Below the pieces are notes generated by a model that was given only the letters and a program-made list of their open reading frames with translations, did not search any database and was not told where the DNA came from. Shown here in pieces: positions 13,401 to 59,869 of a DNA stretch of 64,000 nucleotides. The stretch covers positions 1 through 64,000 of IMG/VR virus record IMGVR_UViG_3300028888_000085; one strand, written 5' to 3'. The translations under genes and the position numbers were made by a program. Position 1 is the stretch's first letter. Each line of letters starts with the position of its first letter. Origin of the DNA: a virus. Its lineage: Duplodnaviria; Caudoviricetes.

Positions 13401-13445
13401 AAAATCGCGTAGAACACGCCTAATTTGCGTTCTACGCGATTTTTT
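13401..13445. terminator. Bidirectional terminator between convergent blocks
   Basis: AAAATCGCGTAGAAC...GTTCTACGCGATTTTT inverted repeat. Confidence 0.75.
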
Positions 13446-13502
13446 GTTTTAGGTATGTACTTACTAGGGTAATAATGTAACTTTTTAGTACAGGGCAAAT
13501 TT
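13421..13502 (-). repeat. Dispersed ~90-bp intergenic element, copy A
   Basis: Reverse complement reads AAATTTGCCCTGTACTAAAAAGTTAC...AGTAC...AAAACAAAAAATCG...GCAAATTA, matching the copies at 37608 and 49831. Confidence 0.9.
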
Positions 13503-13578
13503 GGTCTTGTTCTGAGACAGAATGTTCAACGGTATTCAGTCTTCTGGTTTGAGTTTAGGCTTTTTCAAAAATGATACA

Positions 13579-21717: not shown

Positions 21718-21759
21718 AAAAACAAAGCCACCTCGTAAATCCGAGGTGGCTTTGTTTTT
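21718..21759. terminator. Bidirectional intrinsic terminator; ends the CRISPR-omegaRNA transcript on the minus strand
   Basis: AAAAACAAAGCCACCTCG-TAAATC-CGAGGTGGCTTTGTTTTT. Confidence 0.85.
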
Positions 21760-21772
21760 GACAGGCATTCCT

Positions 21773-21957
21773 GTAAGCCATCGGCATGAGAGCCGATGTA
21801 ATGCGTATTATCATTTACGATAACACGGCTTCCCCTTGACAAGGCATCAACTGAATTGGATGAACTGGGGAGGTATTCAAGCGTTTCATTAAAGTTGATG
21901 CGTAGCTCCGAAGAACTAAGTCTGTTCCCATCAGTGTGACATTTGGGACCTTTAGAG
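21773..21957 (-). ncRNA. omegaRNA/HEARO-like scaffold with anti-repeat, fused to the terminal CRISPR repeat (locus 1)
   Basis: Minus strand: anti-repeat AAATGTCACACTGATGGGAAC (21924-21944), CAGACTTAG, C-UUCG-G hairpin, CTACG, GCATCAAC/GTTGATGC stem, TCCCC...GGGGA pseudoknot, GGCTTAC. Collinear with 59514-59707. Confidence 0.8.
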
Positions 21958-22191
21958 GTATCACACCCGTTATAAATGCCATACCTACGAGACTCTTGCA
22001 TAACAAAACTTTTCTTGTAAAAAGTATCATACTCGTAATAAATGACATACCTCTGAGACCGCCTGTTGCTTGCTACGGTGGCGAGGTGCGTATAACACCC
22101 GTAATAAATGACATACCTCTGAGACCATGAGTCCACGTAAGCGACATTGACATTCGTATAACACCCGTAATAAATGTCACACCTCTAAGAC
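21958..22191 (-). CRISPR. Mini CRISPR array: four 36-bp repeats, three 30-bp spacers
   Basis: Repeats at 21958-21993, 22024-22059, 22090-22125, 22156-22191 (exact 66-bp period). Minus-strand consensus GTCTCAGAGGTATGTCATTTATTACGGGTGTTATAC. Spacers are unrelated to each other. Confidence 0.92.
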
Positions 22192-23289
22192 AGCATCATG
22201 TAGCGGGAAGAAGTTAGGTATTGGTTTTTTTCCAAGTTCTATTGCTACGGCCCCATCACGGAGTAAATCAAGGCATCGTGCATACCCTGTTTTGTATGTG
22301 AAGTCTTTTGGGTATCCGTAAGGTCGTAGTGAATGCATGAAGTTGTGCAGAGCTGCACAGTCAACTTCGTTGTTTCCTTTTCCTTCATTCGGAAAGATTC
22401 CGCCATCAATCAACGATACACGGATGTCCCAACCATAATCTGCGTTTCGTGTATGCTTGTTGTATCGTGTGATGTGGACGTGTGGCGGAATTTCTTTATT
22501 CTCATGTGACATGCACACATAGAGTTCATACGTATAATCTCCCGATATATCGAGATTCCCAACCAAAGCACGTCCACATCCTGCTCCGATTTCGCATTGC
22601 GGTAAGTGTTTTTCGATGGTTGTTCTGTATGTGGCATCGAAATCTGAAAGAACTTTGTACACCTCGTTACGCTCTCGTGAAACCAAGTCACATGTTTGAC
22701 AGAACATTTTCGTGATGGCAGCCCATAACGGTTGCTGTTTATCCTCTTTCGTTGCATTCGTTATACGAAGAATTTCCGCATCTTCTTGCTGTGATACACA
22801 GTTGAGTGAATGTACGTATTTCAGGATTTTTCTGGTGCTTTCCGCGTTTTTTCTGTGTGCCGAAATACAAAGTAATATCAGACGAACAAGCCATTCCGAA
22901 GCGGCGTTTTCTTTGATGAAATCCAGACTTTTAGCAGGGATACAATGGAACAGTTCGTCATAGAGTGCATACACGTCAAAGAGTTCCATTATGGCCTGTG
23001 GAGTACGTGGTTTTTCGCTATCGTTGTACCGTGCGTAAGACTCGTTAAATAGCCGGTCAAGAAATGGTTTTAGCTTGTCTTTCGTATAGACGTGTACGGT
23101 TTTGTCGTCAAAGTCGATTCCGAACTCACGGCATACCTCGTTAGACAATTTGAGTCTTTGCCATTCGTCCGGGTATTTCGTTGTCGGATGTGTAAAGTGT
23201 TCTGCTATGTCCATCGAAAGAATGTACGTAGTGTCGTTTAACAGTACCCCTCGGATACCTCTAATTCTGAATGGAATTTGTTTACTCAT
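22177..23289 (-). CDS. Hypothetical protein with a C-terminal DUF4160-like motif
   Basis: AAGGA RBS before MSKQIPF. Motif HENKEIPPHVHI. Stop codon lies inside the first CRISPR repeat. Confidence 0.6.
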   Translation of the reverse strand: MSKQIPFRIRGIRGVLLNDTTYILSMDIAEHFTHPTTKYPDEWQRLKLSNEVCREFGIDFDDKTVHVYTKDKLKPFLDRLFNESYARYNDSEKPRTPQAIMELFDVYALYDELFHCIPAKSLDFIKENAASEWLVRLILLCISAHRKNAESTRKILKYVHSLNCVSQQEDAEILRITNATKEDKQQPLWAAITKMFCQTCDLVSRERNEVYKVLSDFDATYRTTIEKHLPQCEIGAGCGRALVGNLDISGDYTYELYVCMSHENKEIPPHVHITRYNKHTRNADYGWDIRVSLIDGGIFPNEGKGNNEVDCAALHNFMHSLRPYGYPKDFTYKTGYARCLDLLRDGAVAIELGKKPIPNFFPLHDAVLEV

Positions 23290-37528: not shown

Positions 37529-37607
37529 TCTGTGTGCAGTCCTCTTGCGTGTTTGAAGAAAAATCCCTGTGTTCTCCGTCATAGGGATTTTTCTTTATAT
37601 GGTACTC

Positions 37608-37706
37608 AAATTTGCCCTGTACTAAAAAGTTACGTCCTTATCCTGGTGAGTACACACATAAAACAAAAATGCGTCAGAACGCAAATTAGACCCATTTACG
37701 GATGTG
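37608..37706 (+). repeat. Dispersed ~90-bp intergenic element, copy B
   Basis: AAATTTGCCCTGTACTAAAAAGTTACG...GAGTACAC...AAAACAAAAAT...GCAAATTAGACCC. Confidence 0.9.
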
Positions 37707-43726: not shown

Positions 43727-43923
43727 CTCCTGGCACGCGTCATAAAGTCTTTTGTTTCTTTTGTTTCATAAACATAAGCATCCACCGTGTGACATTTATT
43801 ATCAAAGTTTGGTGCTGACATTTACGTGCCGTATGTGCATTTAAGGTCTTCACCTGTTGTGCGCACATCGGTGCTGACCCGCACGGGCACGATTTTACGT
43901 TGTACAACGAAAAGGAGATGCTT

Positions 43924-49739: not shown

Positions 49740-49830
49740 TGCTTGATGCGTTTCAGAGTACGGTTCGGTTTCGTCAAGGGGATTTTCCAGTCAGGTTAAT
49801 CCCCTTTTCTTTTTCGTTCATGTACCCACC

Positions 49831-49931
49831 AAATTTGCCCTGTACTAAAAAGTTACGACCTTACCCTAGTGAGTACACGTCTAAAACAAAAAATCGAGTA
49901 CAGAGCAAATTAGACCCCTTTACGGACGTGT
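49831..49931 (+). repeat. Dispersed ~90-bp intergenic element, copy C
   Basis: AAATTTGCCCTGTACTAAAAAGTTACG...GAGTACAC...AAAACAAAAAATCG...GCAAATTAGACCC. Confidence 0.9.
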
Positions 49932-49968
49932 TCAATTTTTACATTGAGTTCTTTGGAGATTTTATACC

Positions 49969-53736: not shown

Positions 53737-53893
53737 TTCTTGGAACATTTCGTAGTCGTCATCAAAAATTTTTGTGGTTTGTACAAGGGTAATTGTCCAG
53801 TAGCCTGTTTTCTAACAAATCTTAACTTTTTTTAACTTTTACACTTGATTTCCTTTGCAATGTGACTATACTCCATACTCAAGGAGGCGGCTT

Positions 53894-55534
53894 ATGCCGA
53901 TAGTCTTATGTACGTACCTAGTCGTAAGGCTTGCCTTGAGTTGGGAGTTCATGCAAACACACTGCGGAGATGGGCAGATGAAGGAAAAATTCGATACATC
54001 AGGACAGCCGGGGGTAAACGCCTCTATGACTGTTCAAGCATCGAACAAAGCAGTAGTACGAAAAAGAACTACTGCTACTGCCGCGTCTCATCGTCAAAGC
54101 AAAAGGACGACCTCGAAAGGCAAGTCAGTTTCATGTCAGAAAGATACCCAGACCACACCATTCTCAAAGATGTTGGGTCTGGTCTCAATTTCAAAAGAAA
54201 ACAACTTCTCTTCTTGCTTGAAGAATGTGCAATGGGAAGGGTTGGAGAAGTTGTCGTTGCCTACCGAGACAGACTTTGCAGATTTGGATTTGAACTGCTT
54301 GAATGGTTCTTCTCTCAAAACTCTGTCAAACTCATGGTTCTCGAACAACAAGAATTATCGCCTCAACAGGAGCTTGTTGCAGACCTCATCTCAGTTATCA
54401 CGGACTTTTCAAGTAGAGTTCACGGACTCAGAAAATACCGTACAGCGGTCAAGGAAGATACGAGTTTACCCAACGCAGGAACAGAAGAAGATTCTGAGTA
54501 ACTGGTTTGGTGCTTCGAGATTCGCTTATAACAAGACCGTTGAATTTCTTAAACAGCCAGACACAAAAGCTCAATGGAAGTCTGTCAAGACGAACTTGTT
54601 GCATGAAATGCCTGAATGGGCAAAAGAAGTTCCGTACCAAATTAAGTCTGTTGCGATACGTGACTGCTGTCAGGCAGTGTCGAATGCTAAAAAGAAATTC
54701 AAACAGACGGGCAAGTTTCAGGAAGTGAAATTCCGTTCAAAGAAACGAGGTGATAACAACCTGTTCATTCCACAAAGTGCTGTTTCAGAGAATGGTGTGT
54801 ACCACACTATTCTTGGTAAACTGAAAACGGCAGAGCCTTTGTGGAAACCTGTACATGACTGCCGTGTGGTTTTACAGAACGGACGTTATTTCGTCATAAT
54901 ACCTATTGATGTTGCGGTTAAAAGACCTGAGAACCAAAGGCTTTCTGCCTGTGCATTGGACTGTGGTGTTAGGACGTTCCAGACTGTTTTCTCAAAAGAG
55001 CTGATTTTGAAAGTCGGTGAGCATGATTTTCAACGAATCTTCCGATATTGCTATGCTTTGGACAAGTTGATTTCTCGTAAGAAAAAAGAGCGAAGCAATA
55101 AGTTTAATAAAGCAATGCAGAGAATCCGTTGGAGAGTTCGTGACCTCATTGACGAAATCCACAACAAACTCGCTATTGCACTGTGTCGAATGTTTGAGGT
55201 TATTTATATCCCGACATTCGAGACGCATGACATGGTTTCAAAATTGAAACACAAAACATCCAGAGCAATGCTTGGATGGGCACATTATCGTTTCAAGATG
55301 AAGCTCAAAGCAAAAGCAGAAGAGTATTCCTGCAAAGTGGTTGATTGTACAGAACAGTACACGTCAAAGACTTGTGGAAATTGTGGATTGGAGAATCAAA
55401 TAGGTGGAAACGAAGTCTGGACGTGCAAGCATTGTGGTTGTATGCATGACAGAGATATAAACGGAGCAAGAAATATCCTGCTAAAGCAGATATTTCTTGC
55501 GATGAGAGATTCCTCCACGTCTTGTTTGGCGTGA
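53894..55534 (+). CDS. tnpB: TnpB RNA-guided nuclease, pro-Fanzor type (start uncertain)
   Basis: KIRVYPT HTH, RuvC-I ALDCG, IYIPTF, TEQYTSKTCGNCG zinc finger, DRDINGARNI. Confidence 0.9.
   Translation: MPIVLCTYLVVRLALSWEFMQTHCGDGQMKEKFDTSGQPGVNASMTVQASNKAVVRKRTTATAASHRQSKRTTSKGKSVSCQKDTQTTPFSKMLGLVSISKENNFSSCLKNVQWEGLEKLSLPTETDFADLDLNCLNGSSLKTLSNSWFSNNKNYRLNRSLLQTSSQLSRTFQVEFTDSENTVQRSRKIRVYPTQEQKKILSNWFGASRFAYNKTVEFLKQPDTKAQWKSVKTNLLHEMPEWAKEVPYQIKSVAIRDCCQAVSNAKKKFKQTGKFQEVKFRSKKRGDNNLFIPQSAVSENGVYHTILGKLKTAEPLWKPVHDCRVVLQNGRYFVIIPIDVAVKRPENQRLSACALDCGVRTFQTVFSKELILKVGEHDFQRIFRYCYALDKLISRKKKERSNKFNKAMQRIRWRVRDLIDEIHNKLAIALCRMFEVIYIPTFETHDMVSKLKHKTSRAMLGWAHYRFKMKLKAKAEEYSCKVVDCTEQYTSKTCGNCGLENQIGGNEVWTCKHCGCMHDRDINGARNILLKQIFLAMRDSSTSCLA
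53908..54501 (+). CDS. tnpA: IS607 serine recombinase transposase
   Basis: MerR-like HTH (LGVHANTLRRWADEGKI...TAGGKRLY), catalytic YCRVSS, DVGSGLNFKRK, YRDRLCRFG. Confidence 0.95.
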   Translation: MYVPSRKACLELGVHANTLRRWADEGKIRYIRTAGGKRLYDCSSIEQSSSTKKNYCYCRVSSSKQKDDLERQVSFMSERYPDHTILKDVGSGLNFKRKQLLFLLEECAMGRVGEVVVAYRDRLCRFGFELLEWFFSQNSVKLMVLEQQELSPQQELVADLISVITDFSSRVHGLRKYRTAVKEDTSLPNAGTEEDSE

Positions 55535-58927: not shown

Positions 58928-59032
58928 ATTTTCCTTAGTCAGTCGTGGTGCTGTGAAAGTTTCATCCAGTCTATGGTGCTATAACACTTACGCACTATTA
59001 TGGTGATAGTGCATTGAGTAAGGAGAGAGGAA

Positions 59033-59392
59033 ATGAGGACTTTGGAGAGAATTGAAACAGCAGTTTTAATGGAGGACTTTGATGGTGGGAATCTGTGTGA
59101 TGCGATTGATTTACGTACCGACGTTTTTGTTTCTCGGTGTGGTTCTGAAGTTACGTTACAGTTTGAAATCACACAGGGCAACCTTGTTGATTTGGCAGAC
59201 AAGATTCAGAACATTTCACGTCCGTGTAAATGCGAGAACTGTGAAAAAGCGTGCATGAATCCGAAACGTTGTCGGTTTTACTTCTCTGATAGATTTATTG
59301 AATGTTATGTGTCACATGTAATATGCGAGTTTTCAGAGAATGGTGAGTGTGCTTCGTTCACAATAACAGGAATAGTAGGACTTACTTTATGA
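59033..59392 (+). CDS. Hypothetical protein
   Basis: AAGGAG/GAGG RBS; Cys cluster. Confidence 0.65.
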   Translation: MRTLERIETAVLMEDFDGGNLCDAIDLRTDVFVSRCGSEVTLQFEITQGNLVDLADKIQNISRPCKCENCEKACMNPKRCRFYFSDRFIECYVSHVICEFSENGECASFTITGIVGLTL

Positions 59393-59477
59393 AAGAATAT
59401 GACATTCAAGTGCCTTGCATGATGTACGACAACATAACCTATTGGAGAGTGTAGGATGTCTCTTGAGCAATTCAAAT

Positions 59478-59513
59478 GTCTCAGAGGTATGGCATTTATT
59501 ATGGGTGTAATAC
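59478..59513 (+). CRISPR. Solitary CRISPR repeat (same family as 21958-22191)
   Basis: GTCTCAGAGGTATGGCATTTATTATGGGTGTAATAC; 33/36 identical to the repeat at 22090-22125. Confidence 0.85.
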
Positions 59514-59707
59514 CTCTAAATCACCCGTAACGAATGCCATGCTAATGAGAACAGACTAAGTTCTTTATTGAACTACGCATCAACTTTAAGAAACGTTTGA
59601 ATGCCTCCCCAGTTCATTCAATTCTGTTGATGCCTTGTCGAGGGGAAGTCGTATCGCCCTTACGGGAGGTACGCACTACACCAACTTTCATGTTGGTGGC
59701 TTATAGC
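59478..59707 (+). ncRNA. Natural single-guide-like RNA: repeat, loop, anti-repeat, omegaRNA/HEARO-like scaffold (locus 2)
   Basis: Anti-repeat 59522-59552 pairs with about 30 nt of the repeat. CAGACTAAG, CTACG, GCATCAAC/GTTGATGC, TCCCC/GGGGA, TTGTCGAGGGGAA, CACCAAC/GTTGGTG, GGCTTATAGC. Confidence 0.8.
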
Positions 59708-59869
59708 GAAAATTAGCAACATGATAACCTAAAAAGCCAGGCACTTTCTGAACAAATTTGGTGTGCGAACAGTTGTCGTTGAGGTTACAAAGGAAATCAC
59801 GGTGAAGAAAACTATCTGTGTCCATAACAGGTATGAACCAAATAATGACGTTGATAATGGAGAGTGACA

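Follow-up and report, generated by a model that had tools for sequence, protein, structure and literature searches.

A putative orphan IscB guide-RNA cassette in a large phage, and the distal repeat that best fits its shortened anti-repeat

When several repeats lie on one transcript, which of them does a single anti-repeat pair with, and which nuclease does the resulting guide serve? Locus 1 raises both questions: four repeats precede one short anti-repeat, and the best match to this anti-repeat is found in the repeat farthest from it. A sequence-only reading took the arrangement for tracrRNA-like long-range pairing of the Cas9 kind, in which one scaffold would select different guides by pairing with alternative repeats, a step from a fused omegaRNA towards a split crRNA/tracrRNA.

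The window analysed here is the first 64 kb of a 98,607-bp IMG/VR virus record that is an estimated ~38% complete. Its T4-type prohead protease and its many large ORFs without Pfam domains point to a large phage.

Layout of the locus 1 cassette

The whole 98.6-kb record holds exactly six full scaffold copies (c1–c6), accompanied by 4, 1, 2, 6, 4 and 7 repeats, respectively (24 in total). On the sense strand, all six cassettes follow the same order, with an array, its last repeat, a loop beginning CUCUAAA, the anti-repeat and the scaffold. In c1, which is locus 1, the RNA-sense strand is the minus strand, an assignment fixed by the many G·U pairs of the structure. Along this strand, the end of an ORF, which also makes up S4, is followed by R4, S3, R3, S2, R2, S1, R1, the loop, a short anti-repeat, a scaffold of ~155 nt and a terminator. 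The four 36-nt repeats recur with a period of 66 nt and are bordered on their low-coordinate side by ~190 nt of non-coding sequence and then the terminator hairpin. They are 81–92% identical to the reference copy and differ from one another by 8–19%. The features of c1, and of locus 2 (c2) as a comparison cassette, are as follows.

21718–21759, both strands: bidirectional terminator hairpin with 18-bp arms (inverted repeat 100% complementary, A/T-run flanks)
21770–21925, minus: core of the putative IscB omegaRNA scaffold, comprising six helices 3′ of the anti-repeat (from family alignment and covariation)
21926–21944, minus: shortened anti-repeat that forms the 3′ strand of the first helix of the omegaRNA (from pairing to the repeats)
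21944–21933, 21932–21931 and 21930–21926, minus: parts of the anti-repeat, namely the upper-stem strand, GA and the lower-stem UGGGA
21944–21949, minus: GUCCCA, perhaps the remnant of a repeat start, able to close the lower stem locally (UCCCA:UGGGA)
21950–21957, minus: loop segment between R1 and the anti-repeat, beginning CUCUAAA as in all cassettes
21958–21993, minus: R1, the scaffold-adjacent repeat (12 Watson–Crick pairs, 4 G·U pairs and 1 A·C mismatch with the anti-repeat)
21994–22023, minus: spacer S1, AT-rich, the guide of the adjacent-repeat form
22024–22059, minus: R2 (two mismatches, −14.6 kcal/mol)
22060–22089, minus: spacer S2
22090–22125, minus: R3 (two mismatches, −17.1 kcal/mol)
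22126–22155, minus: spacer S3
22156–22191, minus: R4, the distal repeat and perfect partner (14 Watson–Crick and 3 G·U pairs, −25.2 kcal/mol)
22192–22221, minus: S4, the 30 nt preceding R4, within the coding region of the upstream gene; would be the guide in the R4-paired form
22177–23289, minus: phage gene without assigned function, running into R4 (370 aa from this start shared with homologues; longest ORF to 23379)
59478–59707, plus: locus 2 (c2), with one repeat, a full 30-nt anti-repeat and a scaffold
59448–59477, plus: flank-derived guide of c2

The terminator is predicted to end both the cassette RNA on the minus strand and a converging gene on the plus strand. The c1 anti-repeat lacks the ~11 nt that pair with repeat positions 21–31 in the other cassettes. 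The non-coding part of c2, on the opposite strand, is 79% identical to that of c1, with compensatory changes visible between the two. None of the spacers S1–S4 matches the record or related loci, and S4, S3 and S2 have no exact 20-mer in IMG/VR.

No convincing internal promoter for a separate tracrRNA was found in c1, where array and anti-repeat follow one another without a break. Directly next to R4 lies a motif resembling a promoter box (22199–22190). Transcription starting from it would leave R4 out of the RNA, a possibility that was rejected as weak. This box (22190–22199, minus) has one mismatch to RTGGTGCTGT and lies 28–29 nt from a −10-like hexamer, compared with 24–25 nt in the clear cases at 58945 and ~96690 of the record; boxes with one mismatch are common.

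The scaffold family adjoins IscB

Several observations bear on the identity of the effector. First, the scaffold behaves as a conserved structured RNA. In a covariation test, the named structure has 95.9% of its cells paired and both sides changed at 15 pairs, a result that is reached by 0 of 500 shuffles, with slid controls giving 32–42% (about 35%). The c1 scaffold aligns over its full length with the five other scaffolds of the record and with two from other phages. No Rfam family matches it, and HEARO (RF02033) is absent at gathering score in the window and at E ≤ 1 on c1 and c3–c6; around one-third of IscB loci are likewise without a HEARO match (PMC9755519).

Second, one member of the family adjoins a nuclease gene. 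The c5 scaffold lies directly upstream of, and on the same strand as, a 607-aa IscB ORF (record 82997–81174, L003:175–1998, minus strand, outside the window), with 26 nt between the scaffold end and the iscB ATG. This ORF carries RRXRR (8.4e-44) and HNH (2e-13) domains and a weak RuvC match. Thousands of IscB homologues were found, of which the nearest is a single 97%-identical twin (P0001) and the next are ordinary proteins of ~420 aa with 41–49% identity. The c1 scaffold is a full-length homologue of the c5 scaffold (nhmmer, 1.6e-70) and has no nuclease gene beside it. Because of this homology to a scaffold directly upstream of iscB, we assign the c1 scaffold to IscB: judged by its sequence, c1 is a putative orphan copy of an IscB omegaRNA, of the family linked to iscB through c5, with a CRISPR-like mini-array. 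A 400-aa ORF was also considered as effector, and was rejected as having no Pfam domains and two close homologues only.

In a different reading, c1 would be a Cas9-type tracrRNA with its mini-array, or a decoy made of repeats, and would exploit or block a type II CRISPR–Cas system of the host. The 36-nt repeats, the 30-nt spacers and the duplex of lower stem, bulge and upper stem do resemble type II-A. However, the 98.6-kb record (~38% complete) has no match to the Cas9 model TIGR01865, the large ORFs of the window are without Cas9 domains and the same scaffold family sits directly upstream of IscB; further, the repeats are not identical to one another. The 20-nt pattern of the repeat core occurs in 0 of 185,579 species genomes, bacterial or archaeal, and host repeat mimicry by a solitary phage repeat unit or an RNA anti-CRISPR decoy is rejected on this ground. 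No Cas1, RNase III or Y1 TnpA gene was found in the 98.6 kb. The proposal of a Cas9/tracrRNA-like effector is thus not borne out, and we consider any reading that depends on a host type II system highly improbable.

Scaffold and repeat-pattern scans of IMG/VR and JGI returned two related phages only, L005/G001 and L010, with all other hits being chance matches; among GenBank phages there is no DNA match to locus 1, and the IscBs found there are only distant. In the sister phage L010, c2 is missing at the syntenic site, and the alignment ends exactly at 59478, the first base of the c2 repeat. This precise break is evidence that cassettes move as repeat-plus-scaffold units. The comparison spans window positions 59388–59858 and L010:11166–11827, where c2 is either absent or replaced.

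The distal repeat is the favoured partner in folding

The c1 anti-repeat contains the 11-mer AAATGTCACAC (21944–21934, minus strand). As the sequence-only reading had noticed, its perfect complement, GTGTGACATTT, is found on the minus strand only in R4 (22182–22172), and the core of the adjacent R1, GTATGGCATTT, meets AAATGTCACAC with one A·C mismatch and one G·U pair. The core of R2 and R3, GTATGTCATTT, has two mismatches in each case. A third copy of AAATGTCACAC, at 43787–43797, lies outside any scaffold and is a chance match. The duplex has the bipartite form that had been described for it, with a lower stem at repeat positions 2–6 (UCUUA with UGGGA, 21930–21926), a tandem G·A/A·G and a 12-bp upper stem at positions 9–20. 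It is also shorter in c1, where it involves repeat positions 2–20, than at locus 2 and in the other cassettes, where it involves positions 2–31.

Cofolding of each repeat with the scaffold favours R4 by ~6 kcal/mol. Against the c1 anti-repeat, RNAcofold and duplexfold give −25.2 kcal/mol for R4, −19.4 for R1, −17.1 for R3 and −14.6 for R2, in keeping with the pairs of the 17-bp core (14 Watson–Crick and 3 G·U with R4; 12 Watson–Crick, 4 G·U and 1 A·C with R1; two mismatches with R2 and R3). Full-length ensembles agree. In the partition function of the full c1 transcript, pairing of the anti-repeat core has a probability of 0.977 with R4 and of 0.0 with R1–R3, irrespective of whether 30, 150 or 400 nt of upstream sequence is included, and blocking R4 leaves the core without any repeat partner; like those of c3–c6, this ensemble is an equilibrium fold of a 500–650-nt RNA, fragile and context-sensitive, and blind to co-transcriptional order, to ribosomes on R4 and to protein binding. 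Exclusive pairing of the adjacent repeat is thus not what the equilibrium model predicts.

Co-transcriptionally, R1 emerges just ahead of the anti-repeat. In a modelled nascent c1 RNA, R4 is engaged elsewhere before the anti-repeat is made (unpaired probability 0.19). Ribosomes would also compete with pairing of R4, because its positions 1–15 are translated and hold the stop codon. A rival explanation of the distal match holds that only the scaffold-adjacent repeat pairs, in a local hairpin formed during transcription, and that the match to R4 has no present function: R4 would be the oldest repeat and the original partner, with R1–R3 as later arrivals from other cassettes. In c1, folding argues against this explanation. 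The isolated R1:anti-repeat hairpin is weak, at −20.1 kcal/mol compared with −32 to −39 kcal/mol in the other cassettes, and it is unpopulated in every ensemble, even with the other repeats blocked.

Other folds compete with the repeat:anti-repeat helix. Each repeat is partly self-complementary (positions 6–20 with 26–36), and in R1 this hairpin is extended by the loop CUCU (for example, window 21954–21988, minus). RNAalifold favoured the repeat self-hairpin over the repeat:anti-repeat helix, whereas single-sequence folds and pair counts favoured the helix; the self-hairpin is a competitor fold that, on these models, could keep unused repeats closed. For the c1 anti-repeat, the models offer a third competitor, a closed local form in which UCCCA:UGGGA makes five Watson–Crick pairs and the anti-repeat becomes a 13-nt loop, as in L005.

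An orphan scaffold that belongs to this family but has no repeat upper stem is found at L005:1200–1382, in the 138-kb phage record G001 (IMGVR_UViG_3300028888_000061). Copies of a ~90-bp element lie on its flanks, and the element is also present at 13401–13503, 37606–37698 and 49802–49938 of the window. Neither repeats nor IscB were found in the 138 kb of G001.

The likeness of c1 to this scaffold (28/30 identical between c1 21949–21920 and L005:1200–1229) hints that the c1 scaffold descends from, or recombined with, a short-helix omegaRNA. It also feeds a further rival explanation, in which c1 is decaying or differently built: a short-helix type like L005, with the former anti-repeat as a loop and the array as a passenger or as served only in trans. 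Consistent with this, G001 still keeps the 11-mer although it has neither repeats nor IscB, the local stem of c1 consists of five perfect Watson–Crick pairs and the repeats of c1 have diverged from one another to the extent given above. By contrast, the closed hairpin is worth −5.6 kcal/mol, no better than shuffles, against −25.2 kcal/mol for R4; elsewhere in the c1 scaffold, all helices are retained and private changes are few; and the guide of the closed form would consist of repeat plus loop sequence, which makes no sense as a target. We regard a decaying or differently built c1 as quite unlikely.

Non-adjacent repeats in the other cassettes

In the equilibrium ensembles, with the same sensitivity to context, the anti-repeat is paired with R3 in c5 (0.92) and in c6 (0.89), is shared by R1–R4 in c4 and is paired with the adjacent repeat in c3. 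The choice of R3 in c6 is made although R1 and R2 form stronger isolated duplexes. Preference for the most distant repeat, as seen at locus 1, therefore fails as a rule: c6 favours the third of its seven repeats, and c3 the adjacent one.

Two features of the upstream units argue against the explanation in which only adjacent repeats ever pair. First, among the 18 upstream repeats, positions 1–20 are 92% conserved, compared with 73% for positions 21–36, and the conserved part is exactly the stretch that pairs in c1. Second, one upstream spacer in the array next to iscB, c5_S3, has a match in the sister phage at L010:13109–13134, with the 3′ 16 nt perfect and followed by GAAAAA. With their conserved 5′ parts and a flanked target, the upstream units do not, in general, have the appearance of dead relics. 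The flank guide of c2 also matches L010, at the empty site, and is followed there by GGAAAA.

In DelIscB, the guide is 16 nt long, and activity survives when much of the repeat/anti-repeat hairpin is removed and the stem is closed with a GAAA cap (PMC12660989). As the apex of the helix is dispensable, the rest of an array should be tolerated as a large loop. The conserved 5′ part of the repeats, the target of c5_S3 and the trimmable hairpin of DelIscB together make it probable that non-adjacent, upstream repeats are in use generally.

The two protospacers in L010 (13094–13134 and 11723–11759 (minus)) suggest GRAAAA as a candidate target-adjacent motif for the phage IscB, and that of c5_S3 covers the start codon of an L010 gene. 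Separately, c5 spacer S2 (L003:2306–2335, record 83334–83305) and L010:6593–6622 are near reverse complements (25/29). The latter is the scaffold-proximal spacer of a c3-like array in the sister phage, and from these sequences the two phages appear to aim at the same target on opposite strands, one via c5 S2 and the other via the L010 spacer.

Origin of the match to the distal repeat

We asked by permutation, with shuffled labels, whether upstream repeats fit the anti-repeat of their own cassette better than those of other cassettes. The own-cassette fit is not statistically compelling (p ~0.10), and the proper null is drift among repeat alleles, because the repeats are homologous. The anti-repeat allele of c1 is common to c6 and L005, and the repeat allele that fits it is confined to c1_R4 and c6_R3. 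The 11-mer can persist without a partner in cis, as L005 has no upper stem and G001 has no repeats.

Distal repeats are the most degenerate ones in c3, c4, c5 and c6, spacers are shortened in c4 and c6, and the syntenic arrays of c3 and L010 have their distal units in common and differ in the scaffold-proximal spacer. The distal end of an array thus looks old, and R4 may simply be the original partner of the c1 anti-repeat. Moreover, scaffold segments are mosaic among the cassettes, and the core allele of R1 is identical in five of the six regardless of the anti-repeat, which suggests exchange between cassettes. At the distal ends of the long arrays c4 (record 74571–74453) and c6 (96621–96529), where repeats are degenerate, spacers are shortened to 2, 9 and 21 nt, and each end looks, from its sequence, like a decayed old array end.

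R4 is also part of a gene. Its positions 1–12 code for the final four residues of the upstream ORF, and the TGA stop of this ORF occupies positions 13–15. Of the two bases that decide for R4, A15 is a base of the stop codon and may be kept for this reason rather than for pairing, and G12 is a synonymous third position. The upstream gene has two homologues (P0121 and P0122), one 95% and the other 88% identical, which stop at the corresponding position but differ in their final residues. The 95%-identical one ends in Asp-Met rather than Glu-Val, which excludes GG at repeat positions 9–10, and the 88%-identical one differs more. Because the homologous tail forbids this GG, strong constraint on R4 is argued against.

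The age of the distal units, the suggested exchange of R1 and of scaffold segments, the variable protein tail encoded by R4 and the permutation result all favour the explanation in which the distal match is a historical leftover and only the adjacent repeat pairs. Set against the weak, unpopulated adjacent hairpin of c1, the conserved first 20 nt of upstream repeats and the flanked target of an upstream spacer, they leave it, in our judgement, a possible but doubtful account of the locus as a whole. For the match itself, the sequences indicate that there is probably no special fit of the c1 anti-repeat to R4. The perfect complementarity is most likely an inherited pair of alleles, an old repeat and an old anti-repeat, and not a special adaptation. 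Taken alone, the match to the distal repeat offers a modest clue, and one that is statistically weak. It makes guide choice by alternative pairing plausible, and it could equally be an inherited leftover.

A model for guide choice

Our preferred reading is that c1 is an orphan IscB guide cassette with a first helix that can be completed by any repeat, R4 being favoured and its match inherited. As a joint explanation it is the best that we can offer, and we hold it with a little less than even confidence. Locus 1 would then provide, from the minus strand, guide RNA for the phage’s own IscB, and the guide would be the spacer immediately upstream of the repeat that provides the 5′ strand of the first helix. 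Loss of the part of the anti-repeat for repeat positions 21–31 would reduce the c1 helix to 5 bp, a tandem G·A and 12 bp; because this helix is short, two bases decide the partner, and R4 fits without mismatch.

The partner could come in cis, as any repeat of the same transcript with the remaining array as a large apical loop, or in trans, as a repeat on the transcript of another cassette. Upstream spacers would thereby become usable as guides. In c1, the anti-repeat would favour R4 and so present the flank-derived guide S4, and R1–R3 would more likely find their partners in the full-length anti-repeats of the five remaining cassettes, with which the repeats of c1 pair better than with their own (−33 to −41 kcal/mol; R2, −21 to −26 kcal/mol). 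We infer that the c1 pairings form in the cell and load IscB. A point against the preferred reading is that each transcript has one anti-repeat for up to seven repeats.

A more specific version places all of the choice in cis: a single IscB scaffold would sample several repeats of an unprocessed array, with alternative folds giving different guides and the short c1 anti-repeat biasing the outcome to the flank-derived one. We consider this specific version rather unlikely. The earlier idea that one scaffold obtains different guides from alternative repeats therefore survives in part. Folding favours R4 in c1 and non-adjacent partners in c5 and c6, with the role shared among R1–R4 in c4; the fit between the c1 anti-repeat and R4 need not be an adaptive one.

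Relation to known systems

CRISPR-associated IscB, exemplified by DelIscB, comprises the few IscB loci that bear arrays (Altae-Tran et al. 2021, as described in PMC12660989 and PMC11610941), and c1 belongs to it as a variant rather than as a separate type of system. As in these loci, the phage IscB has the RRXRR/RuvC/HNH arrangement (with a weak RuvC match here), the non-coding RNA upstream of the gene combines spacers and repeats with an anti-repeat that is joined to an omegaRNA-like scaffold, and the guide lies 5′ of the repeat; shortening of the repeat/anti-repeat hairpin, which is tolerated in DelIscB, is natural in c1. Unlike them, the system is encoded by a large phage, with one nuclease gene for six scaffolds, five of them orphan. 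The phage IscB has 607 aa compared with ~420 aa in its nearest homologues other than the twin, the repeats are heterogeneous and no HEARO match is found in Rfam. Further, the c1 anti-repeat is naturally shortened and has a non-adjacent repeat as its best partner.

The likeness to type II crRNA:tracrRNA extends to a bipartite helix with an internal loop, a spacer 5′ of the repeat, conservation of the first ~20 nt of the repeat and an anti-repeat that could, in principle, serve many repeats. In contrast to type II, a single transcript links the anti-repeat to the last repeat, the repeats are non-identical and the 98.6 kb contain no Cas9, cas1 or RNase III. Stand-alone omegaRNAs of OMEGA (IS200/IS605) systems offer a third comparison. 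There too, scaffolds occur without a nuclease gene and are possibly served by a nuclease encoded elsewhere (PMC11610941), and the guide of c2, like theirs, is the flank of an insertion site. Unlike stand-alone omegaRNAs, most of the phage copies carry mini-arrays, and the fragment has no Y1 TnpA.

CRISPR-associated IscB is seen as a possible intermediate between the transposon omegaRNA and the crRNA/tracrRNA of Cas9 (PMC12660989, PMC11610941), and whether and how its array RNA yields several guides is stated as a question (PMC12660989). The suggestion that locus 1 marks a step from a fused omegaRNA to a split crRNA/tracrRNA fits this view, with the correction that the effector is IscB and not Cas9. 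If alternative pairing in cis is true, the phage would hold a living intermediate on this path, and alternative pairing would answer how CRISPR-associated IscB employs its upstream spacers.

The phage holds natural variants side by side, from the single-guide c2, through c3–c6 with full anti-repeats and 2–7 repeats, to the shortened c1, in which the only stable partner of the anti-repeat in silico is a repeat 227 nt upstream. As variants of one scaffold, they make guide choice testable with one nuclease and few RNAs, and c1–c6 could show how much of the repeat:anti-repeat helix IscB needs.

Finally, the window contains an IS607-type element (53855–55534), in which a serine-recombinase TnpA (Resolvase, 3e-17; MerR HTH) overlaps a TnpB (Cas12f1-like TNB, 1.9e-20; HTH_OrfB_IS605; OrfB_IS605). 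With this TnpB, the phage carries a second kind of RNA-guided nuclease.
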